From Candidatus Zymogenaceae bacterium (GTDB lineage: Bacteria; Desulfobacterota; Zymogenia; Zymogenales; Zymogenaceae), in contig JAFGFE010000026.1 in assembly GCA_016931225.1 (NCBI GenBank), forward strand, positions 11,499 through 75,498: a DNA stretch of 64,000 nucleotides, written 5' to 3'. Position 1 is the stretch's first letter. Each line of letters opens with the position of its first letter. The notes under the pieces are model-generated. The model was not told the origin of the DNA and ran no database searches. It saw only the letters and a program-made list of their open reading frames with translations. The position numbers and the translations under genes are program-made. Positions 168 to 56,836 of this stretch are shown piece by piece.

Positions 168-836
168 TTACTTGACTTTCTGGAACGTCCTGCCGTTGAT
201 CATCGAGGAGACGGTCCCCTCCTTGAAAATCACGTCGTACCAGAACGCCATGTAGATGTGCACAAAGATAAACAGGATAAACAGCCACGTCAGGATATGA
301 TGCACATACCTGACACCGGCCAGCCCCCCCATCATCCGTTCCACCGGCCTGAGAATGGCATAGACGACGCCGGTAACCCCGGCATCGTAATTGCCGCCCA
401 TCAGGATGAGGCCGGTGATGACGATGAGAAAGACCATGACAAACAACCCGCCGTAGGCCATCGCCTGCAGGGGACCGTACAGGTAATTCCGCTCCGGTTT
501 TTCCTTCGAGACGAATGTGTAGAACTTGATCTGTTTGATGAGGTTCTTCCACTCCGTAAAGGCCAGGAAGTTCTTCCACGAGGCGTGCTGCGCGGGGATG
601 AATCCCAGGTAGACCCTCCAGATGAAGGTGAACACCAGAAACAACCCGAACAAAATATGTACGAATCGGACGTCTCCCATGAAGAACTTATCCACCGTTT
701 CGCCCGCCTCCAGGACGAAGGGTCGGGCGATATAGAAGCCGGTGGCGATCAGAATGAAGATGGTGAGCGCCATCGTCCAGTGTAATATCCTGATGGCCAC
801 GGACCATTCTTTTACCGCAACTCTTGTGTCTTCCAC
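168..836 (-). CDS. [NiFe] hydrogenase cytochrome b subunit (HyaC/HupC/HynC-type membrane anchor)
   Basis: ORF 168..926(-). The region ...RVAVKEWSVAIRILHWTMALTIFILIATGFY aligns with the HyaC N-terminus (VRIWHWL...). The first ATG at 926 overlaps the large-subunit gene, so the likely start is GTG 836, 9 nt after a GGAGG at 846-850. Multiple TM helices with conserved His. Confidence 0.85.
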   Translation of the reverse strand: MEDTRVAVKEWSVAIRILHWTMALTIFILIATGFYIARPFVLEAGETVDKFFMGDVRFVHILFGLFLVFTFIWRVYLGFIPAQHASWKNFLAFTEWKNLIKQIKFYTFVSKEKPERNYLYGPLQAMAYGGLFVMVFLIVITGLILMGGNYDAGVTGVVYAILRPVERMMGGLAGVRYVHHILTWLFILFIFVHIYMAFWYDVIFKEGTVSSMINGRTFQKVK

Positions 837-856
837 CGCAATCACCTCCTGTGACG

Positions 857-2530
857 TTACAGCACCTTGAACTGATTCACCTCGCCGGAGCGCGGATCGA
901 TAATGTGCACCGCACAGGCCATGCACGGATCGAAAGAATGGATCGTGCGCAGTATCTCCAGGGGTTGTTCCTTATTTGAAAGCTTCACGCCGATGAGTGA
1001 CTTCTCGTACGGCCCCCGGCTTCCCTCAGCGTCCCGCGGAGAGCAGTTCCAGGTGGAGGGTACGATGGCCTGGTAATTAGCGATCACCTTGTTCTCGATG
1101 CGAATCCAGTGTCCCAGGGCGCCACGGGGAACTTCGTTCATGCCCCTGCCCTGTCCTTCCTTCGGCACGTCGCAGCGGGTCCAGGTTCGTTCGTCTCCGG
1201 CCCTGACGTTGGAAACCAGCTCGTCGATCCACGACTCGGTGTTGTCGGCGACCAGCTTCGTCTCCAGGGCCCTGGCCGCGGTCCTTCCCAGTGTGGAGAA
1301 GAGAATCGAGGCAGGGGCGTTCAGGGCACCCAGAGTGTAGTCCACCAGGCCCTTGATCTGCTCGTGGCCCTGGGCGTATCCGACCAGAAATCGGGCCAGG
1401 GGTCCCACCTCGTAGGGATCGCCGTCGTAACGGGGCGCCTTGCACCAGGTGTACTTGCCGTCCCCCTGGACGTATCCGTCTGCGCCGAATCCGGTGTATT
1501 CCGGTTCCGTCTCGCCGTTATAGGGATGAAGCGCCTCCGACCCCTGGTACCAGGAGTGGGTCACCTCCTCGGTGATTTTCTCCTCGTCCAGCTCCAGCGC
1601 CTCGGAGAGGTCCATGTTCTTGACGACCCCCCGGGGAAGGAGTGTCTGGTTCCAGTCGTCATCCAGGGGAAATCCGCCGTAGGCGAGGTAGTTGCCCACA
1701 CCGGCCCCGATGCCCGCAAGTCCCTCGTCGGCGTAGGTCGCACCGGCGATCAGCACGTCCGGGATATACGCCGTGTCCACAAAATTCTGTACCTCGCGGA
1801 GCATGAATCGGTACTTCGACAGGCGATCGGCGTCCAGCGCGTCCATAACACAGGTCACGCCGCCGGCAACCAGGGTCTGGGGATGGGGATTCTTGGACCC
1901 GAAGATGGCCTGCATGCGCGCGCCGATTTTGGAGATATACAGGGCGTCCAGGTAGTGCGACGTGATCACCAGGTTTGCCTCGGGCGAGAGCTTGTAGGAT
2001 GAATTGCCCCAGTAGGCGTTCGCGAAGGGGCCGAGCCGTCCCGAGTCGACGAAACGTTTCAGACGCTCCTGCACCGCTTTGTAGTGGGTCTCCGAGCAGT
2101 TATAGGGATTGTCATGCACGCTCTTGGCAAGCGCCACCGCCTTTTTCGGATCCGCACCGAGCGCGCTGACGATGTCAACCCAGTCCAGTCCGTGCAGGTG
2201 GTAGAAATGCATGATGTGGTCGGTTAAATACTGCGAGGCCTTTATGAGGTTCCTGATGATCCGGGCGTTCGCCGGAGGCTTCACGCCGAAGGCGTCCTCC
2301 ACCGCCATGATCGACGCCTCGTAGTGTGAGTAGGTACAGACGCCGCAGAATCGCTGGGTAAACAGGCCCGCGTCCCGGGGATCCCGTCCCTTGAGGATGG
2401 TCTCAAACCCCCTCCAGAGTGTGATGGAACTCCAGGCGTCCTGGATGGTATTGCCGCCGTCTACCTCCACCTCTATGCGTAAATGTCCTTCGATCCGGGT
2501 AATCGGATCGACGATAATTCGTTGCGCCAT
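857..2530 (-). CDS. [NiFe] hydrogenase large subunit, group 1 (uptake type)
   Basis: 557 aa. N-terminal RFCGVC and C-terminal DPCMACAVH Ni-binding motifs, followed by a 15-aa extension typical of maturation-protease cleavage. AAGGAG RBS 9 nt upstream of ATG 2530. Confidence 0.95.
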   Translation of the reverse strand: MAQRIIVDPITRIEGHLRIEVEVDGGNTIQDAWSSITLWRGFETILKGRDPRDAGLFTQRFCGVCTYSHYEASIMAVEDAFGVKPPANARIIRNLIKASQYLTDHIMHFYHLHGLDWVDIVSALGADPKKAVALAKSVHDNPYNCSETHYKAVQERLKRFVDSGRLGPFANAYWGNSSYKLSPEANLVITSHYLDALYISKIGARMQAIFGSKNPHPQTLVAGGVTCVMDALDADRLSKYRFMLREVQNFVDTAYIPDVLIAGATYADEGLAGIGAGVGNYLAYGGFPLDDDWNQTLLPRGVVKNMDLSEALELDEEKITEEVTHSWYQGSEALHPYNGETEPEYTGFGADGYVQGDGKYTWCKAPRYDGDPYEVGPLARFLVGYAQGHEQIKGLVDYTLGALNAPASILFSTLGRTAARALETKLVADNTESWIDELVSNVRAGDERTWTRCDVPKEGQGRGMNEVPRGALGHWIRIENKVIANYQAIVPSTWNCSPRDAEGSRGPYEKSLIGVKLSNKEQPLEILRTIHSFDPCMACAVHIIDPRSGEVNQFKVL

Positions 2531-2557
2531 AATCTATCGCTCCTTGTTCGATATCCG

Positions 2558-3754
2558 TTACTTTTCGTCCTTCGATTCTTCCGCGGCCTTGTCGTGTCGT
2601 TTGAGGGCCGTGACACCGGCGTGAACGCCGATTCCCGCCGCCGTCGCCGCCGCCAGCCCCAGGAAGACACCATCCGCCACCGCCTCGAAACCGATGGACT
2701 TTTCCGCAATCGGCTTTTCCAGGGGCGCCATGGTGTCCCAGAAGGCCGGCTCCACGCATCCCATGCAGCCGTGACCGCCCATGATGGGCCAGGACGTGGC
2801 GTCGTTGAATCGAACCTTGCCGCAATTGGCGTAGGTGTAAGGGCCCTTGCATCCCATCTTGTAGAGACACCAGCCGCGCTTGGCGCCCTCGTCTCCCCAT
2901 TCCTCCACGTATTCCCCGGCGTCGTAATGAGAGCGCCTTTCACAGTAATCATGAATGCGCTTTCCGTACGCCCAGACCGGCCGGCCCAGCCCATCGGTGG
3001 CGGGCATGGCGCCGAACATGAGGAAGTGGAGCACGGTGCCGGTGAAGTTTATGGGATTGGGCGGACACCCGGCGATATTGACCGTCTTGATCCTGATGGC
3101 GTCCCTGACGCCCTTGGCATCGGTGGGATTCGGCCGCGCGGCCTGAACATTCCCAAAAGATGAGCAGCTTCCGATGCAGATGGTCGCCGCGGCCTTCGAA
3201 GTCACTTCCTTGGCGACCTCCAGGCCGGTCTTTCCCTTTGAACCCAGGGTCAGGTAGTATCCGTCGAGCCCCGTGGGGATGGCGCCCTCGATAACGCAAA
3301 CGAATGTACCTTCAAAATCGGCAATGGCCTTGTGGAGGTTTTCCTCCGCCTGATCCCCCGCCGCTACCATCAGTGTCTCGTGGTACTCAAGGGAGATGGT
3401 ATCAAGCAGGATATCGTCCACGTTCGGGTATGATGAGCGCAGAAACGCCTCGGAGCAGCCGGTGCACTCGGCGAAGTGGAGCCATACCACCGGGAGCCGG
3501 CTGAAGTTTTCCGCCGCCCGGGCCACCAACGGTCGAAACGCCGTCGGCAGCATGAGGGCCGTGGTCATAACGGCCGTCCACTTCATAAAATCACGCCGAT
3601 TGACGCCTCCCCGGGCGAGTGTTTCGTGAAAATCGAATTTCGGGGCGGGAAGCTCCGCTTCCACCCTATCCATATGCGCCCGGCAGTGTTCAAGCAACTC
3701 CTCATATTGCGTTTCAATGGTCTGCCGATAGTCGCTTCCGTTCTTCTTTGCCAT
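2558..3754 (-). CDS. [NiFe] hydrogenase small subunit (Tat-exported, C-terminal membrane anchor)
   Basis: ORF 2558..3835. Twin-arginine motif GVNRRDFMKWTAV, then ECTGCSE and a distal Cys cluster, with a hydrophobic C-terminal helix. Start set at ATG 3754 because of a strong AAGGAGGAG RBS; alternative in-frame ATGs exist at 3835 and ~3673. Confidence 0.9.
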   Translation of the reverse strand: MAKKNGSDYRQTIETQYEELLEHCRAHMDRVEAELPAPKFDFHETLARGGVNRRDFMKWTAVMTTALMLPTAFRPLVARAAENFSRLPVVWLHFAECTGCSEAFLRSSYPNVDDILLDTISLEYHETLMVAAGDQAEENLHKAIADFEGTFVCVIEGAIPTGLDGYYLTLGSKGKTGLEVAKEVTSKAAATICIGSCSSFGNVQAARPNPTDAKGVRDAIRIKTVNIAGCPPNPINFTGTVLHFLMFGAMPATDGLGRPVWAYGKRIHDYCERRSHYDAGEYVEEWGDEGAKRGWCLYKMGCKGPYTYANCGKVRFNDATSWPIMGGHGCMGCVEPAFWDTMAPLEKPIAEKSIGFEAVADGVFLGLAAATAAGIGVHAGVTALKRHDKAAEESKDEK

Positions 3755-4357
3755 ATATCTCCTCCTTAATTCATCGATGTTTTGCGATTCAGCTCCGATA
3801 CGGATCCGTACGCACCCGAAAGCGGCGCGATCCATACCGTTGTAATGTGTGCCGGCTGGGCGGTCTTGTCACAATGGGCTTTGGACCGCATGCCGGCTCA
3901 TATACACCACAAACGCTCTCTTTTCTTTTTCACATAAGGAGAATAAAGCCGAAAGGGCACAGATGCACATCTCGGTATCACGATAGACGTGAGACGGGGG
4001 AACCTGCGTCGAAATGGGGAAAAACAGTAGGCGCAGATATAGCGGCTCATGAGGCTCATGATTATTCTCCTTTCCAAACACGGGAGGCGTGGCCGTTTCC
4101 AGCCAAACCCTATCGGCCAAGCACCGTGGAGAAGGAGAAAAGCCTCTCCCGAAGGCGACGTATCAAACCACTCTGTCCGGTAAGTCCGTCCACATCTCTT
4201 TAGGCACTGTGGCTCGGAGAATCTGTCTGCTTATGTTTTAAAAAAAACGCGAGACTATGTCAAGATATTTCTGCCCGTGCTCGAAATTTACCCGTCCGAG
4301 ACCCCCACCGTGTCGGTCTCATCCTATGTAATACACTATTTTTAAAACATAAAACGC

Positions 4358-4386
4358 TTGACAGTGAATCGCTATTCAGTTATATT
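4358..4386 (+). promoter_or_regulatory. sigma70-type promoter for the formate dehydrogenase operon (TTGACA-N17-TATATT)
   Basis: Seen in sequence: TTGACA at 4358-4363, a 17-nt spacer, TATATT at 4381-4386, about 230 nt upstream of the fdh alpha start. Confidence 0.55.
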
Positions 4387-4453
4387 TGTTTTCGGTTACA
4401 AAAAATATAACTACTTCCGAGTTCCTGTGTCCCATCGGGATACATGAACCGAT

Positions 4454-4547
4454 AGGGAAAGAGAGCAATTTCTTTCCCGGCCGCACTCGCAAAGGAAGCA
4501 TTGACCGCTGTGAACGATCAGCGGCGGTCGAGGCTTCCTTTTTTTTT
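4454..4547 (+). promoter_or_regulatory. Structured 5' leader of the fdh operon: upstream hairpin (GGGAAAGA..TCTTTCCC), then a GC stem (GGAAGC..GACCGCTG..CAGCGGCGGTC..GCTTCC) followed by T9. Candidate attenuator or riboswitch-like terminator
   Basis: Seen in sequence: nested inverted repeats at 4494-4538 followed directly by ttttttttt at 4539-4547. They sit between the promoter and the start codon at 4615. Confidence 0.45.
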
Positions 4548-4614
4548 GGATACCATATCACCTGTTTTCAACCCATTATTACCCATCAAAAGGGTGAAAG
4601 GAGAGAGAAGCGTT

Positions 4615-7600
4615 ATGGACGTAACCAGACGTGCATTTCTCAAGCTCTCGGGCGCCACTGCTTTGGGTACGGGATTAGGCCTGAATATAACCAACGCGTA
4701 TGCCCAGGCCCTGCCCCTGAAAATCCAGTACGCCCGTGAGTCAACCACTATTTGCCCATACTGCGCGGTGGGTTGCGGTATTATTGTACACACCAAGAAC
4801 GGCAGAGTTGTCAATACCGAAGGCGACCCGGATCATCCCATCAACGAGGGCGCCCTCTGCTCCAAGGGGGGCTCGCTCTACCAGATGGCGGTGAACGACG
4901 CCCGCCTGAAAGTACCCCTGTACCGCGCACCCGGCAGCGACAAGTGGGAAGAAAAATCCTGGGAATGGATGATCGAACAGATCGCCAAGCGGGTGGTGAA
5001 AACCCGCGAGGAGACCTTTACCCTCACCAATGACCAGGGCAAGACAGTCAACCGCACACTCGGAATCGCTTCAATGGGAAGCGCCGCCATGGACAACGAG
5101 GAGTGCTATGTGTATCAAAAATTTCTGCGCGGGTTGGGCCTGGTGTATGTCGAGCACCAGGCACGTATCTGACACAGCGCAACGGTAGCGGCTCTGGCAG
5201 AGTCGTTTGGACGCGGCGCGATGACAAATCACTGGATAGACCTCAAAAACAGTGATTGCATCTTAATAATGGGCAGCAATGCTGCAGAAAATCACCCCAT
5301 TTCTTTCAAGTGGGTACAGCGCGCAATTGAAAACGGCGCAACCCTCATCAACGTGGACCCGAGGTTCACCCGTACGTCGGCCAAGGCGCATATATATGCA
5401 CCTCTGCGGTCAGGATCGGACATTGCATTTCTGGGCGGCATGATAAAATACATCATTGACAGCAATCTATACTTCAAAGAATATCTTGCCGAGTACACCA
5501 ACGCGTCATTCATCCTTAACCCGGATTTCAAGCTCCCCGCGGAAAACAACGGCGTTTTCTCCGGGCTCACCGAGACCCCCACCGGCGGCAAATACGACAA
5601 GTCGACATGGGCGTTCGTCAAGGACGGCAGGGGCGTCCCGGTTCGGGACAAGACCCTCTCCGATCCGATGTGTGTCTTTCAGCTGTTGAAAAAGGAATTT
5701 GACCGCTACACCATCGAAACGGTTTCGAGGGTAACCGGCACCCCGGAAGACAAGCTGAAGACCGTATACGAAACATACGCACAGACCGGGACCCCGGATA
5801 AGTCCGGCACCATCATGTACGCCATGGGCTGGACCCAGCACACGGTGGGCGTGCAGAACATCAGGACCATGTCCATCATCCAGCTGCTTCTGGGTAACAT
5901 GGGCATGGCCGGCGGCGGTGTGAACGCCCTCAGGGGCGAGTCCAACGTGCAGGGGTCTACAGACCATGCCCTGCTGTATCACATCCTCCCCGGCTACCTT
6001 TCCACCCCCCATACCGGATGGCCGACCCTGGACGACTACAAGAAGACCACTGTCGCCTCCGTCTCCACAAAGGACCCCCTCAGCGCCAGCTGGTGGACCA
6101 ACTATCCCAAGTATATTGTCAGCCTCCTTCGGGCCTTCTACGGCCTGAACGCGACGCCGGAGGAAGGGTATCTCTACCTTCCCAAGCTGGACCCCGGCGT
6201 CAACTATTCGTGGCTGAAGATATGGGACGAGGTCTACAAGGAAAACATCAAGGGTGTGTTCGCGTGGGGCCAAAACCCGGCATGTTCCGGCGCACACTCC
6301 AACAAGGTGCGTCAGGGACTCGCCAAGCTGGATTGGCTGGTCAACGTCAACATCTTCGACAACGAAACCGGCTCCTTCTGGCGGGGCCCGGGCATGAAAC
6401 CTGCGGACATCAACACCGAGGTGTTCATGCTCCCCTGCGCGGGATCGGTCGAGAAGGAAGGCAGCATCACCAACTCCGGCCGATGGATGCAGTGGCGCTA
6501 CAAGGCAGTTGAGCCGCCCGGATCGGCAAAACCCGACGGCGACATCATCAGCGAGCTGTATTTCAAGATCAAAGAAGTCATGGAGGAAGAGGGGTCCGTT
6601 TTCAAGGATGCCTTCACAAAACTGACCTGGGACTATGGCCCAAAGGATTTCTTCGGCAAAATGACGGCGTTTGACACTCATTACGCCGCCAAGGAGATCA
6701 ACGGCTTCTTCCTGGAAGACAAAGTCATCAACGGCGTATTGTATTCCAAGGGAGATTTGGTCCCGTCGTTCGGCTCCCTCCAGGATGACGGCTCCACGTG
6801 CAGCGGGAACTGGCTGTACTGCCAGTCCTATAACGCCTCCGGCAACAACGCCGCACGTCGTAACAACAAGGATGAGTCCGGCATCGGCCTCCATTCGGAA
6901 TGGGCCTGGTGCTGGCCGGTCAACCGGCGCATCATCTACAACAGGGCGTCGGTGGACCTCTTCGGCGCACCCTGGGCGCCTCAAAAGCCCGTCATCAAGT
7001 GGAACGGCGCCAAGTGGCTGGGAGACGTCCCCGACGGCGGCTGGGCCCCGATCTACAAGGAAAACGGCTCCGTGAATTCCGCCTCCAAGCTTCCGTTTAT
7101 CATGAAGCCCGACGGCGTCGCGTCGATTTTCGGTCCCGGCAGGGCCGATGGACCGTTCCCGACCCACTACGAACCCACGGAATGCCCGGTAGAGAAAAAC
7201 CTGATCAATCCGGATCAACTTCTCAACCCGACGGTATACCGGTTCGATAAGGAAGACGTCGGAAGCGACCTGGACACGTTTGCGGGGGTATGCGACCCGA
7301 ACTATCCGATCATCGGCACCACGTATCGCGTCAGCGAGCACTGGCAGACGGGTATCATGACCCGCTGGCAGCCGTGGCTGGCGGAGATGCAGCCTGCGAA
7401 TTTCGTGGAAATGAGCGAGCAGCTGGCCGATCTCAAGGGTATCAAGAACGGTGAGAAGGTGCGTGTCACCTCCGCCCGGGGCTCCGTGGACGCGGTGGCC
7501 ATTGTCACCGCCAGATTCAAGCCATTTCTCGTGGACGGCAATACGATACATCAGGTGGGAATGCCCTGGCATTACGGCTGGAGGACCGCCAAAAACGGTC

Positions 7601-7755
7601 AGAACAGTGACCCCCTGAACGCAAAACCGGACGTGTTCACCTACGGTGACTCCGCAAATCTTCTGACCCCCTCCATCGGCGACCCGAACACCATGATTCC
7701 GGAGACAAAAACCTTCCTTGTCAACATTGAAAAACTGAAGGGAGGTGGGGAATAA
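4615..7755 (+). CDS. Formate dehydrogenase catalytic (alpha) subunit, periplasmic, selenocysteine-containing (TGA at 5170-5172 read through)
   Basis: ORFs 4501..5172 and 5221..7755 are contiguous through an in-frame TGA: EHQARI-U-HSATVAALAESFGRGAMTNHW, which matches the FdnG/FdhA active-site context. Tat signal MDVTRRAFLK; N-terminal CxxC..C Fe-S motif; AAAGGAGAGAG RBS before ATG 4615. Confidence 0.93.
5170..5172 (+). other. Selenocysteine (UGA) recoding codon in the fdh alpha gene
   Basis: In-frame TGA flanked by the conserved QARI-U-HS motif. A downstream SECIS hairpin is expected but was not folded here. Confidence 0.85.
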
Positions 7756-8570
7756 TGGCAGCGACATACACAATGAAGAAGAAAGAAATGGTCAAATTGG
7801 TTGACCTTACGAAATGTACCGGTTGCCGCTCATGCCAGGTCGCCTGTAAGAACTGGAACCAGCAGCCGGCGGCTCAGACCGAAAATGTCGGGAGTCACCA
7901 GAATCCTCAGGACCTCCAGCACAACACATGGACGCTCATTCGCTTCCATGAGGGGACCGATGCAAATGGAGATATGTACTGGGATTTCAGGAAGGACGGC
8001 TGCTTCCACTGCTCCGACGCCTCATGCGTCCGCGTGTGCCCCACGGGGGCCCTCAGCTACGGGGAGATGGGGGCGGTCCGCCTCAACCAGGAGCTGTGCA
8101 TCGGGTGTCAGTACTGCACCATCGCCTGCCCGTTCAGCATCCCGAGATACGACAAGGTTACCAACAAAACCTACAAGTGCACCCTGTGCGAGGATCGCAT
8201 AACCAACGACCTGCCCCCCGCGTGCGTCAAGGCCTGCCCCACCGGCTGCCTGTCCTTCGGTCCCAAGGAGGACATGATCGCGGCCGGCGAACAGCGGGTG
8301 ATTGCGCTCAAGGAAATGGGGCATGAGAACGCGTCTCTCTACGGCAAGGAGTATGTGAACGGCACCCATGTCATGTACGTGCTCACGAAGCCGGAAAAGG
8401 AATATGCGGAACTGACGGTCAAGCCGAACGTCCCGGTTGCGGTCAGGCTGTGGCGGGGTGTGGCAAAGCCGCTGGGCCTCCTCTCGATCGGTGCGGTCGT
8501 CGGCGCGTCGCTGCTCCACTATTTCATCAAGGGTTCCAAGGCGCCCAAGGAAGAAGAGGGAGGTGAATAA
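7755..8570 (+). CDS. Formate dehydrogenase iron-sulfur (beta) subunit, FdnH-like, with C-terminal TM anchor
   Basis: 271 aa. Four CxxCxxCxxxCP ferredoxin motifs, a C-terminal hydrophobic helix, and a TAATG stop/start overlap with the alpha gene. Confidence 0.92.
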   Translation: MAATYTMKKKEMVKLVDLTKCTGCRSCQVACKNWNQQPAAQTENVGSHQNPQDLQHNTWTLIRFHEGTDANGDMYWDFRKDGCFHCSDASCVRVCPTGALSYGEMGAVRLNQELCIGCQYCTIACPFSIPRYDKVTNKTYKCTLCEDRITNDLPPACVKACPTGCLSFGPKEDMIAAGEQRVIALKEMGHENASLYGKEYVNGTHVMYVLTKPEKEYAELTVKPNVPVAVRLWRGVAKPLGLLSIGAVVGASLLHYFIKGSKAPKEEEGGE

Positions 8571-8572
8571 TC

Positions 8573-9202
8573 ATGGCTACGGCAAAGGACAAAACCATCA
8601 TCGCGTCAACGGCGTATGAACGGATCGTCCATTGGTTTCTGGCGATTCCCTGCCTCCTGCTGGTGCTCACCGGGGTCATCCTGGCCTTTCGGTCCTTCGA
8701 ACCGCTGGCGATCATCTTCGGCGGATATAAAAGCGTTGTGATCATCCACCGCGCGTGCGGGGTGATTTTCACAATAGCGCTGTTCCTGGGCATCCAGATC
8801 TGGTATAAGTACGCCGGATACCTTGACAAATCGGACATCCAATGGCTGATGAACGCCGGCGGATATCTGTGGAAGGCCGACATCCCCAAGCCCTACAAGT
8901 ACAACGCGGGACAGAAGCTCTTTTTCCTGACCGTTGCGGGTTATGGAGTCGTGATGGTCATCACCGGATTCCTCCTCTTTTTCAAGGGGAGCCTCAACCC
9001 GACTTTGATGAGCTGGGTCGTCGCCTTTCACGCCCTCGGCGTGATGATTATCGGCGGCTTTGCCATGGTGCACATCTACCTGGGCACCATCGGTACCGAG
9101 GGCAGTCTGTACGTGATGACCGACGGCAAGGTCTCGAAGGCGTGGGCGAAAACCCACATGCCCGGCTACTACAAGGAAAAAATTGAGGGGAAGAAAGACT
9201 GA
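8573..9202 (+). CDS. Formate dehydrogenase cytochrome b (gamma) subunit, FdnI-like
   Basis: 209 aa with four TM helices and conserved His; a GGAGGTG RBS directly after the beta stop. Confidence 0.88.
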   Translation: MATAKDKTIIASTAYERIVHWFLAIPCLLLVLTGVILAFRSFEPLAIIFGGYKSVVIIHRACGVIFTIALFLGIQIWYKYAGYLDKSDIQWLMNAGGYLWKADIPKPYKYNAGQKLFFLTVAGYGVVMVITGFLLFFKGSLNPTLMSWVVAFHALGVMIIGGFAMVHIYLGTIGTEGSLYVMTDGKVSKAWAKTHMPGYYKEKIEGKKD

Positions 9203-9340: not shown

Positions 9341-10225
9341 GTGGATACACTGCAAAAAGAACTGACCGCCATTCAACGGGCCAAGGAAGAACACCGGGAG
9401 CTCATCGACGTCCTGGATCTCCTTGAAAACCTCGTCGAGACGTCACGGGACGATTCGATCATCGCCTCAACCCCGGAAGCCCCCCCCGCCGGATCAAGCG
9501 ACTTCGCCCTCCGCCTGTCGGACGGATTCCCGATAGCGGATGAAAAAACCGTCCCCCTCTCCATCAAAGACGCCCACGCCCGATTCGACCGCGTGGTGGG
9601 TGTCCTCACCGTTCGAAATCCCGAGGCGGGATCGCGGATTGTCGAGGCGCTCCGTGATCCGCAGCGATTCCAATCCCTCCTTGATACGGCGTTTCCAGGC
9701 GAGATCGGATTGCTTGATCCAAAGGGTGACTCCGAGCCGCTCATTCTTCTGGCGGCACACGAAACGCTGCGCCCCGCATTCGATGTCCTCTGGAATATCG
9801 CCCGCACAGACTACGCGGACGCCCTGTCGGGCTGGAGCGAACTGTTCTGCCCGATATGCGGCGCAAGGCCGAACCTCTCCTTCATCGAAGAGGAGGAAAA
9901 CAGGTCCCTCTTATTCTGCAGCCGGTGCCCCGCACACTGGAGCTTCTCCAGAGTCACCTGCCCGTTCTGTGGAGAAACCGACCACCGGAACCTTCGCTAT
10001 TTCCAGGTCGAGGACGATAACTCCCACCGGGTGTATGTCTGTGACACCTGCTCTCACTATATAAAAGCCGCTCTGGGAGAATCGGGCCGGCATATACACG
10101 CGCGCCTTCTGGACCTGTTAACGCTCCGTCTCGACGCCGTGGCGCGTCGGGAGGGGTACACGCGGGACACGCTGGATCTCCTGGGGATTCTTCTCTTGGA
10201 TATACCGGAGTCGGAAGGCGCTTGA
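9341..10225 (+). CDS. fdhE: Formate dehydrogenase accessory protein FdhE
   Basis: 294 aa with four CxxC pairs (CPICG, CSRC, CPFCG, CDTC) in FdhE arrangement. GTG start. Confidence 0.85.
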   Translation: MDTLQKELTAIQRAKEEHRELIDVLDLLENLVETSRDDSIIASTPEAPPAGSSDFALRLSDGFPIADEKTVPLSIKDAHARFDRVVGVLTVRNPEAGSRIVEALRDPQRFQSLLDTAFPGEIGLLDPKGDSEPLILLAAHETLRPAFDVLWNIARTDYADALSGWSELFCPICGARPNLSFIEEEENRSLLFCSRCPAHWSFSRVTCPFCGETDHRNLRYFQVEDDNSHRVYVCDTCSHYIKAALGESGRHIHARLLDLLTLRLDAVARREGYTRDTLDLLGILLLDIPESEGA

Positions 10226-55276: not shown

Positions 55277-56836
55277 ATGTCCGAACATACAGTATTATTT
55301 GTGGGTAATCTCTCCGAAACGCCCTTTCCCAAGCTTCTCAGCGAGATCAACAGCATGGGGATCACGGGTCGGCTTTCTTTCGAACGGGGCAAGATAAACA
55401 AGCAGGTTTTTTTCAAGAACGGCAGACCGTTTCTTGTCACATCCAATATCCTGCAGGAAGTACTCGGACGGTTCCTCGTCAGTACCGGAAAAATCACCGA
55501 GGAACAGTATAAACGTTCTCTTGTCACGGCCAAGGAGTTCGGCAAGCTGCACGGCCAGGTCATGATTCAGGAGAAGTTTCTGACTTCCGAGGAATTGAAC
55601 GAAGCGTTGCGGGAGCAGTCCAGGTTTCGGCTCTTTTCCCTTTTCAAGTGGAACGACTGCGATTACAAGTTCTTCAGAGAGGATTTTTTCCAGGAACGGG
55701 ACGAATATGCGGACCTCACGATCACCGATATTATTCTCAACGGCATCAGGCAGTCCCATTCCCTCGACCGCCTGATCTCTCTCTTGGAACCCTATCGAAA
55801 TCTCTACCTTTTCCCCGGCGCGGAAAACTCGCGCCTGGATGCAGACTCAACGTTCGATGAACATCAGCGCTGGCTTTTAAATCTGTGCGACGGCACCCAT
55901 ACCGTGGGCGACACCTTGGATCTTTCGCCGCTGGATTTCATTGAGACCCACAGAACCATTTACGCGGCCATCATTCTGAATATCATCACCATAAAGAAAG
56001 ACTCCGCCTCCGAGATACAAAAGAGAGAGGCGCCGACCCCCCCCCGGCCCGAGGGCGTTCCCCTCGAAAAGGAAGCGCCGCCACCGAAAAAGCCCGACGA
56101 GGAATTCAAAGAGCTTCATACAAAGCTGATGGCCATATATCACCAGATGCGCACGAAGAGCTACTTCGACATCCTCAGGGTACAACAAGACTCTCCGGAC
56201 GCGGAAATCAAGAAATCATACATCAAGATGGCAAAGAAGTTTCATCCCGATTCTTTTTCTCCCGAAGAAATCGTGGTTGTGGAAAAGACCGTCAACAAGA
56301 TTTTCGACATCGTCACCCAGGCCTATCGGGTGCTGAGCGATGAAAAAAAGCGAAAGGAATATATCGCCTCCCTCGTCTCTCCGAAAGAGGGAAAAGATGC
56401 GAAACAAACCCACGATATCATGACCGCGGAGCTCCAGTTCCAGAAGGGAATGGTTTTCCTGAAAAAACGGGATTACAGAAATGCGTTCGAGTCCTTCGCC
56501 TGGGCCGTAAAGCTCATGCCCGACGAGGGCGAGTACCTTGCATATCTGGGATGGTCGATTTTCCTGTTTTCCTCGGACAAAACGGGGCCGAACTCGGTAC
56601 AGGCCATCAAGCATCTCAAGAAAGCGGCGACCCTCAACCCATCCATTGAAACACCGTTTCTCTTTCTTGGAACGATATACAAGGTACAGGGGCTCAAGGA
56701 CGTCTCGATCCTTAATTTTAAAAAAGCCCTCGATATCAATCCGGATTCTCTGGAGGCGAGGCGGGAGCTCACCGCCCTGGGGGTCAAACAGAAGGGTGAT
56801 GAACAGAGAAGGGGTCTTTTCGGGAAGAAAAAATAG
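55277..56836 (+). CDS. Multidomain protein: N-terminal DUF4388-like domain + J-domain (HPD) + C-terminal TPR repeats
   Basis: J domain YFDILRVQQDSPDAEIKKSYIKMAKKFHPD; N-terminal LFVGNLSETPFPKLLSEI..GRL pattern; TPR-like C-terminus. Confidence 0.8.
   Translation: MSEHTVLFVGNLSETPFPKLLSEINSMGITGRLSFERGKINKQVFFKNGRPFLVTSNILQEVLGRFLVSTGKITEEQYKRSLVTAKEFGKLHGQVMIQEKFLTSEELNEALREQSRFRLFSLFKWNDCDYKFFREDFFQERDEYADLTITDIILNGIRQSHSLDRLISLLEPYRNLYLFPGAENSRLDADSTFDEHQRWLLNLCDGTHTVGDTLDLSPLDFIETHRTIYAAIILNIITIKKDSASEIQKREAPTPPRPEGVPLEKEAPPPKKPDEEFKELHTKLMAIYHQMRTKSYFDILRVQQDSPDAEIKKSYIKMAKKFHPDSFSPEEIVVVEKTVNKIFDIVTQAYRVLSDEKKRKEYIASLVSPKEGKDAKQTHDIMTAELQFQKGMVFLKKRDYRNAFESFAWAVKLMPDEGEYLAYLGWSIFLFSSDKTGPNSVQAIKHLKKAATLNPSIETPFLFLGTIYKVQGLKDVSILNFKKALDINPDSLEARRELTALGVKQKGDEQRRGLFGKKK

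Follow-up and report, generated by a model that had tools for sequence, protein, structure and literature searches.

Riboswitches assigned to the molybdenum and tungsten cofactors (Moco/Wco, the latter also termed Tuco) are collected in the Rfam family RF01055, a class to which the repression of genes for cofactor synthesis and transport is usually ascribed. In the description of this class (Regulski et al. 2008, PMC2408646), loss of the paired region P3 correlates with the use of the tungsten cofactor, and all four members with a GCAA tetraloop among 176 are devoid of the tetraloop receptor. Furthermore, a Moco RNA is listed in front of the fdnG-hybA-fdnI-fdhE operon of Syntrophomonas wolfei, in which fdnG is split at its selenocysteine (Sec) codon (supplement of PMC2408646). 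Here, we analyze a stretch of 64,000 nt from the genome of a Candidatus Zymogenaceae bacterium (contig JAFGFE010000026.1, positions 11,499 to 75,498), in the following called the window, and in particular the 228-nt leader (4387-4614, plus strand) of its fdh operon, which starts with fdhA for the catalytic subunit of a formate dehydrogenase (FDH). With a probability of roughly 70%, we regard this leader as a Moco/Wco-class riboswitch that acts as an ON switch of transcription, since its conserved architecture predicts the activation of a cofactor-consuming enzyme.

The fdh leader resembles the P3-lacking subtype of RF01055 (PMC2408646) in the junction formed by P1, P2 and P4 with its GNRA loop, in a P5 of 2 bp, in the shared residues GA, CGAUA/AG and AAA ahead of the 3′ strand of P1, and in its location in front of an operon for an enzyme with a Mo/W-pterin. 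It differs from the canonical form in P1 (CUUCC/GGAAG and not CUCC/GGAG), in P5 (GC/GC and not CC/GG) and in P2, which is a plain 13-bp hairpin. Taken together, the sequence and structure comparisons described below support its classification as a divergent copy of the Moco/Wco-class riboswitch, that is, an already known class in a known gene context and no new class.

A candidate Moco/Wco-class aptamer in the fdh leader

The fdh operon is preceded by a sigma-70-type promoter (4358-4386, plus strand) consisting of TTGACA (4358-4363), a 17-nt spacer and TATATT (4381-4386), with 11 of 12 consensus matches. The pattern TTGACA-N17-TATAnT is kept at equal distance from the aptamer in three orthologous loci (L161, L162 and L164), and transcription would start near 4393. 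The putative aptamer without P3 comprises about 85 nt (4414-4498, plus strand) and was delimited by RF01055, by our own covariance model R1, by covariation and by RNAalifold. Its P1 is a 5-bp helix of CUUCC (4414-4418) and GGAAG (4494-4498). This is followed by J1/2 (GA), P2 (4421-4433 / 4437-4449), J2/4 (CGAUA, 4450-4454), P4 (4455-4464 / 4469-4478) with the GCAA loop at 4465-4468, and the two base pairs of P5 between GC (4480-4481) and GC (4489-4490), after which AAA (4491-4493) leads into the 3′ strand of P1.

Directly at this strand begins a predicted intrinsic terminator (4494-4547, plus strand) with a basal stem of GGAAGC (4494-4499) and GCUUCC (4533-4538), an inner stem (4503-4510 / 4520-4529) and a run of nine U residues (4539-4547). 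The hairpin including the U run has a folding energy of -29.6 kcal/mol. The complete 228-nt leader folds at -83.7 kcal/mol compared with -55.1 +/- 4.5 kcal/mol for shuffled sequences (z = -6.4), a value equalled by none of 200 shuffles. A simple terminator scan of the leader did not flag the nested stem, probably because this stem is long and nested and not a simple hairpin. The remaining leader (4548-4614, plus strand) contains a purine-rich ribosome-binding region, GGAGAGAG, at 4600-4607. A AGGGAAAGAGGAGAG-like purine-rich block just 5′ of the fdhA start codon (4590-4614 in the window) is kept in L161, L164, L166, L167, L170, L171, L169 and L172, and this conservation extends well past a minimal Shine-Dalgarno sequence.

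An earlier note on this DNA, made by reading the letters only, had described the promoter, a hairpin at about 4454-4478, a nested GC-rich stem and the nine T residues at 4539-4547, and all of these are present at the positions it gave. In detail, the first hairpin has the sequence GGGAAAGAGA-GCAA-UUUCUUUCCC (4455-4478), and the nested stem is composed of GGAAGC / GACCGCUG ... CAGCGGCGGUC / GCUUCC (4494-4538), directly followed by the T run.

The most direct evidence for the class assignment is a match to RF01055 with 33.1 bits and an E-value of 8e-07, obtained in a scan of the 101 nt from 4405 to 4505 and reaching from 4407 to 4505 over the model positions 5-127. Scaled to the whole 64-kb window, the E-value is about 5e-4. 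In this alignment the P3 positions of the model are deleted, and CGAUA alone lies between P2 and P4. The single-stranded junction residues GA, CGAUA and AAA before the 3′ strand of P1 are identical to those of a canonical copy located 200 nt away on the opposite strand. Compared with canonical copies, P1 is longer by one U-A pair, P5 begins with G-C in place of C-G or U-A, and the nucleotide joining P4 to P5 is freely variable. The tetraloop of P4 is GCAA in the window and GAAA, GUAA, GAGA or GCGA in relatives, all of them of the GNRA type. The differences from the canonical form are thus peripheral or covarying. Judged by its sequence, the leader would be expected to bind the cofactor ligand assigned to the class.

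Conservation of the element in fdhA leaders

Protein-guided scans of genomes and metagenome contigs provided only FdhA relatives with up to 69% identity, few of which carry the aptamer element; the best matches in these scans came from uncultured Syntrophaceae and Thermodesulfobacteriota genomes with 62-68% identity, which would tentatively point to a Syntrophia-like member of the Thermodesulfobacteriota as the source. An exact search with the N-terminal FdhA product of the window retrieved no contig. With the leader as query, a sensitive blastn search (word size 7) in the first 80 related loci gave no match better than chance. Closer FdhA relatives with 70-97% identity were obtained by a protein search, and their contigs were used for the comparison of leaders. 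Upstream of fdhA, these share a motif composed of CUUCCGAG, a hairpin, CCGAUA, a GGG...GNRA...CCC hairpin and GCCG...GCAAAGGAAG. The covariance model R1 was built from five of the closer-relative leaders and detects 14 copies in 13 fdhA leaders. These are the leader of the window, those of L161, L162, L164, L166, L167, L170 and L171, that of L169 with two tandem copies, and the distant L159, L145, L123 and L146. In the window itself, R1 sites are limited to the fdh leader and the riboswitch on the minus strand. A further match of a regular expression at 56010-56072 was discarded, as it is unsupported by the covariance model.

Among the FdhA relatives with at least 74% identity that were looked up, the element is present between the conserved promoter and fdhA in each of the eight distinct loci for which DNA was available (L161, L162, L164, L166, L167, L169, L170 and L171). 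The upstream neighbours of element-bearing fdhA loci vary and include hydrogenase genes, mutL-miaA and a PF0610-like gene; the element is kept despite these differing neighbours and therefore travels with fdhA.

The alignment guided by the model shows standard pairing in 90.4% of the pair cells, and 23 of the 30 pairs are changed on both sides. These values for pairing and compensation were reached by none of 500 shuffles, and the pairing falls to 40-50% when the 3′ partners are shifted by 1-3 columns. RNAalifold applied to an independent MAFFT alignment recovered the same four helices de novo. The segments CUUCCGA, CGA-A-GG and GCAAAGG(A/G)AG are invariant or nearly so across the copies and align to conserved positions of RF01055. 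Moreover, some members of the same group exceed the RF01055 cut-off of 36 bits, namely L164 (51.5 bits), L171 (44.7 bits) and L145 (39.8 bits). The comparison of fdh leaders in relatives, which the earlier note had proposed as a check, thus revealed a conserved structure, and its suggestion of a Moco/Wco riboswitch gained support from the RF01055 match, from the covariation and from the members above the cut-off.

In L169, two variant aptamers (892-981 and 1092-1181) stand in tandem before one fdhA gene, each with its own terminator overlapping P1. Even when only 306 nt were scanned, neither copy matched RF01055 with E<=1. FdhA relatives with about 70% identity carry the canonical form at the same place, with 67.2 bits in L172 and 70.3 bits in L081. 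Taking in further, more distant fdhA orthologs, canonical RF01055 copies were located at 2846-2965 in L172, 2846-2965 in L081 and 2850-2971 in L087, with 54-70 bits and without a terminator. On inspection, the 5′ strand of P1 in L172 and L081 (CUCUCC) is complementary to GGAGAG of the fdhA Shine-Dalgarno region, and this complementarity would give an ON logic at the level of translation.

The standard Rfam pipeline therefore overlooks a riboswitch that looks functional, in the window as well as in the tandem leader of L169, because the receptor-less GCAA form is removed by its speed filters and by the cut-off of 36 bits. The fourteen aligned copies could be used to extend the RF01055 model.

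Competition between P1 and the terminator and the direction of control

According to the earlier note, the first hairpin and the nested stem are mutually exclusive. This does not hold, as both coexist in every predicted fold of the leader. The true competition concerns GGAAG (4494-4498), which pairs either with CUUCC (4414-4418) in P1 or with positions 4534-4538 of GCUUCC (4533-4538) in the terminator base, so that the 3′ strand of P1 makes up the first five bases of the terminator. The check for alternative terminator and antiterminator folding that the earlier note had advised uncovered exactly this competition in minimum-energy folds. For the segments 4393-4500 and 4393-4532, the fold with P1 is the minimum-energy structure, whereas for 4393-4547 the terminator fold (-67.4 kcal/mol) is better than the P1 fold (-54.4 kcal/mol) by 13 kcal/mol.

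The overlap of P1 and terminator is kept in 13 of the 14 copies. In 12 of these, the 5′ arm of the terminator begins at the G that opens the 3′ strand of P1; in L146 it begins one base later. In the overlap-bearing copies, the 3′ arm of the terminator abuts the U run and reads CUUCC, or CUCUC where P1 has GGGAG. The latter is the case for L159, where the shared strand GGGAG faces the terminator arm CUCUC and pairing is maintained despite the changed P1 strand. The terminator interiors have unrelated sequences across the copies and lengths of about 20 to 125 nt.

This layout, with the 3′ strand of P1 shared with the terminator base, is that of the pbuE riboswitch. We therefore infer an ON switch, in which binding of the cofactor would prevent termination, and it is this architecture from which the direction of control in vivo is predicted. 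Transcription would start about 20 nt upstream of the ~85-nt aptamer. Until the polymerase has reached about position 4532, the aptamer with closed P1 would be the most stable fold. As soon as the GCUUCC arm and the U run emerge, the arm could displace the 5′ strand of P1, and the terminator thereby completed would end transcription upstream of fdhA. With bound cofactor, P1 would be held closed and the inner hairpin would be left 9 nt away from the U run, where termination should be impossible; an intrinsic terminator hairpin at 9 nt from its U run should not terminate. The result would be read-through into fdhA, fdhB, the gene for the cytochrome b subunit and possibly fdhE, and the large apoenzyme with its selenocysteine and iron-sulfur clusters would be made only with the metal-pterin cofactor available. 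The conditional read-through of a terminator in front of fdhA that the earlier note postulated is in line with the aptamer match, the covariation and the overlap in 13 of 14 copies. Its statement that the mechanism cannot be told from sequence alone proved too cautious, as the mechanism can largely be read from the sequence together with the comparison.

Several observations weigh against an ON riboswitch of this class. The score of the copy in the window is below the curated gathering cut-off of RF01055 (33.1 compared with 36 bits). P2 has no tetraloop receptor of the CCUAAG...UAUGG type and is a plain hairpin in the window and in the relatives, and the CCUCCC...UUUGG block of the canonical form is replaced by CCCGGCCG...GC. 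To our knowledge, direct binding of Moco or Wco in vitro has not been shown for any RNA of the class, the ligand being labile. The aptamer in the fdh leader was reported neither in the scan of the 64-kb window at the gathering threshold nor in that of 901 nt (3800-4700) at E<=10. One copy, that of L145, has no U run, so that at least one copy must work differently. The terminator being more stable by 13 kcal/mol, any ON effect must be kinetic. In addition, the class is treated as one in which the ligand causes repression (PMC2408646), and the terminator-type Tuco riboswitches of Eubacterium limosum are up under tungsten limitation and thus are OFF switches (PMC11725836). No report of a Moco/Wco riboswitch of the ON type turned up in our search of the literature, which was incomplete.

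The Infernal scan with RF01055 named in the earlier note had a divided outcome: the runs at the gathering threshold and at E<=10 on 901 nt pointed to the opposite strand (minus) only, whereas 4405-4505 submitted alone gave the leader on the plus strand. A match of 33 bits to RF01055 appears or disappears with the length submitted because the speed filters change, and divergent members of the class are probably under-annotated owing to such length-dependent filters. The change of the CCUCCC/UUUGG block represents a covarying P5 pair. By analogy with the four published GCAA members, a receptor-less copy with this loop is best taken as a recognised minority form, which would not exclude it from the class.

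The descriptions of the class as repressing and the behaviour of the E. limosum copies would agree with the same aptamer acting as an OFF switch, in which the ligand favours termination and FDH is repressed when the cofactor is abundant. Such a design is at odds with the use of the P1 3′ strand as terminator base in 13 of 14 copies, which renders a closed aptamer and a complete terminator incompatible. It would instead need a separate anti-terminator that is broken by the formation of P1, and none is visible in the predicted folds of the leader. Moreover, repressing a cofactor-dependent enzyme in the presence of its cofactor makes little physiological sense, and we consider an OFF switch improbable. 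The sub-threshold score, the absent receptor and the far more stable terminator fold could also be explained by a decayed or ligand-independent relic of an aptamer, with a terminator that is constitutive or controlled by a protein or a small RNA (sRNA), or by a transcript of about 150 nt from promoter to terminator that is itself an sRNA. The weak matches to isrD and CssrB (E ~8.5; 3800-4700, E<=10), which resemble terminator modules of sRNAs, would fit the latter idea; they are at chance level and were set aside as terminator look-alikes. A relic is difficult to reconcile with 90% pairing and compensatory changes in leaders of fdhA genes whose products share as little as about 51% identity with that of the window in their N-terminal segments, with invariant junction residues, and with a register of P1 and terminator that stays exact although the terminator interior is completely replaced. 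That the unit is duplicated in tandem in L169 likewise argues for its function, and decay or an sRNA role appears unlikely to us.

A different question is whether the variant aptamer, with its GCAA loop, missing receptor, P5 of GC/GC and P1 of CUUCC/GGAAG, senses another ligand than the canonical copy on the minus strand while switching in the same way. Candidates would be Wco as opposed to Moco, or a precursor such as the metal-free pyranopterin, and the two operons would then answer different signals. The presence of two clearly distinct versions of the sequence in the same genome, at a distance of 200 nt, may hint at this, and structural subtypes have been proposed to discriminate Moco from Tuco (PMC2408646). 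However, the differences are peripheral or covarying: the P5 pair alternates between C-G, U-A and G-C, J4/5 varies freely and all loops are GNRA, whereas the single-stranded junction residues are common to the variant and the canonical forms. Orthologs of FdhA with about 70% identity use the canonical form at the same place, which suggests that the forms are interchangeable, and a separate ligand therefore seems doubtful. Attenuation by a leader peptide, or in response to selenium or formate, had been considered in the earlier note, and the regulated gene indeed requires selenocysteine (UGA at 5170-5172) and its product acts on formate. From the promoter to the terminator (about 4393 to 4547, plus strand) there is no open reading frame (ORF) with an ATG start and a ribosome-binding site; the listed ORFs of the leader begin in or upstream of the promoter or lie on the opposite strand. 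No coding signal conserved across the orthologous fdhA leaders was seen, and the conserved parts of the compared leaders are limited to the cofactor aptamer, the terminator and the Shine-Dalgarno region. Formate-responsive FhlA systems use sigma-54-type promoters, and the promoter found here is of the sigma-70 type and not of the sigma-54 type. This group of mechanisms is accordingly very unlikely, and an ON riboswitch that responds to the Moco/Wco-type cofactor remains our preferred explanation.

The divergent hydrogenase operon and comparison with known systems

The first gene downstream of the leader, fdhA (4615-7755, plus strand, ATG at 4615), encodes the catalytic subunit of a periplasmic Mo/W-bis-pyranopterin FDH exported by the twin-arginine translocation (TAT) pathway, with the Pfam domains Molybdop_Fe4S4, Molybdopterin and Molydop_binding. 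It is followed on the plus strand by fdhB (7755-8570; Fer4_11 with Form-deh_trans), the gene for the cytochrome b subunit (8573-9202; Ni_hydr_CYTB) and fdhE (9341-10225; FdhE); fdhD is placed on the opposite strand from these genes. The in-frame TGA codon for selenocysteine in fdhA (5170-5172) stands in the context ARI-U-HS. This UGA is followed by a hairpin (segment 5164-5235, plus strand), as bacterial selenocysteine insertion elements would require, with a fold no more stable than that of shuffled sequences (z = -0.9). The combination of UGA and hairpin is ordinary for this enzyme family.

About 860 bp separate the start of fdhA from that of a divergent operon for a membrane-bound periplasmic [NiFe] hydrogenase (168-3754, minus strand; start at 3754), identified by Pfam and comprising the small subunit (3754-2558), the large subunit (2530-857) and a cytochrome b (926-168). 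Between the two divergent promoters lies a 6-bp inverted repeat, GAGACC-N11-GGTCTC (4288-4310, plus strand), of which L161 retains only about 4 bp; a regulator may bind here, or the repeat may be due to chance. The mechanically predicted ORF of the hydrogenase small subunit (2558-3835, minus strand) has 425 aa, yet residue 78 is the first of its TAT motif. Translation likely starts at the ATG at 3754, which has a strong Shine-Dalgarno sequence, AAGGAGGAG (3767-3759), in front of it. A clustering of hydrogenase and FDH genes beyond the window is hinted at by L172 and L173 (1-1154; 70% FdhA identity): a gene for a hydrogenase-type cytochrome b, directly preceded by a partial gene that is unannotated, is found 5′ of fdh in the same orientation, and a gene for a Crp/Fnr-type regulator lies between the cytochrome b gene and fdh.

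The hydrogenase side of the divergent region contains a canonical Moco/Wco riboswitch without P3 (4051-4231, minus strand), which matches RF01055 over its full length with 71.1 bits and is the sole match above the Rfam gathering threshold in the 64-kb window. It carries an insertion of 63 nt in P2 and is kept in L161 (64.5 bits); the gene layout of a third relative also matches. A terminator-like site at 4156-4142 (minus strand) was dismissed, as it lies inside this P2 insertion. The only genes downstream of the riboswitch are those of the hydrogenase operon, which begins about 300 nt further on. In these ~300 nt, neither an intrinsic terminator nor significant structure was found (fold z = -1.2). 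The 3′ strand of P1 of this riboswitch, GGAG, is the Shine-Dalgarno sequence of a small upstream ORF of 53 codons (3898-4059, minus strand), whose ATG at 4059 follows after 7 nt. In the comparison with L161, the spacing between Shine-Dalgarno sequence and ATG is kept, substitutions are mostly non-synonymous, and a deletion of 9 nt removes the first ATG. The non-synonymous changes and the deletion speak against a real protein, and the 53-codon ORF is probably a regulatory upstream ORF. Just after the riboswitch, a C-rich and G-poor stretch (4060-3941, minus strand) shows C/G ratios of 1.6-2.2. Furthermore, the upstream ORF contains near its start GCCGCUAUAUCU (4046-4035), a segment complementary to AGAUAUAUGGC (3760-3750) over the start codon of the hydrogenase. 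The C-rich stretch as a loading site for Rho, or the pairing of the two segments, could couple translation of the upstream ORF to the hydrogenase, or either could be due to chance.

Combining both sides, we tentatively put forward that the divergent region may serve as a toggle by which one metabolite selects between two periplasmic electron outlets of an anaerobe, although we hold this to be less probable than not. The cofactor would switch FDH ON by preventing termination and the hydrogenase OFF. For the latter, the canonical aptamer would hide the Shine-Dalgarno sequence of the regulatory upstream ORF, and the loss of its translation would expose the putative Rho-loading stretch (4060-3941) or leave the pairing of 4046-4035 with 3760-3750 over the start codon of the hydrogenase. 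If this is true, the supply of a trace metal would directly decide between formate and H2 in electron handling. FDH and hydrogenase are alternative routes for the disposal or uptake of reducing power in syntrophic and sulfate-reducing communities, and a pair of facing riboswitches for the cofactor, apparently opposite in sign, would let the tungsten or molybdenum supply shift the expression of fdh against that of the hydrogenase.

The switching principle proposed for the fdh leader has its nearest parallel outside the class. In the adenine riboswitch of pbuE/ydhL (Mandal & Breaker 2004, cited in PMC9481103), the 3′ strand of P1 is likewise the 5′ arm of a terminator, and a P1 stabilised by the ligand blocks termination in a kinetic ON switch. 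Its aptamer fold and its ligand are unrelated to those of the fdh leader, so that the two work alike and belong to different families. Within RF01055, the expression platform of the fdh copy predicts activation, whereas the description of the class discusses repression only (PMC2408646). The Tuco riboswitches of E. limosum (PMC11725836) are also P3-less members of RF01055 from an anaerobe with tungsten enzymes, and some of them have terminator-type platforms; in contrast to the predicted ON logic of the fdh leader, these terminator-type copies (focA, fetABC1) are OFF switches. No riboswitch was found upstream of the FDH genes of E. limosum in that study. For the copy on the minus strand (4231-4051), Wco riboswitches before hydrogenase genes provide a precedent (Sherlock et al. 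2022, PMC9481103). The arrangements described there are tandem, whereas in the window a single copy on the hydrogenase side faces away from an fdh copy of predicted opposite logic.

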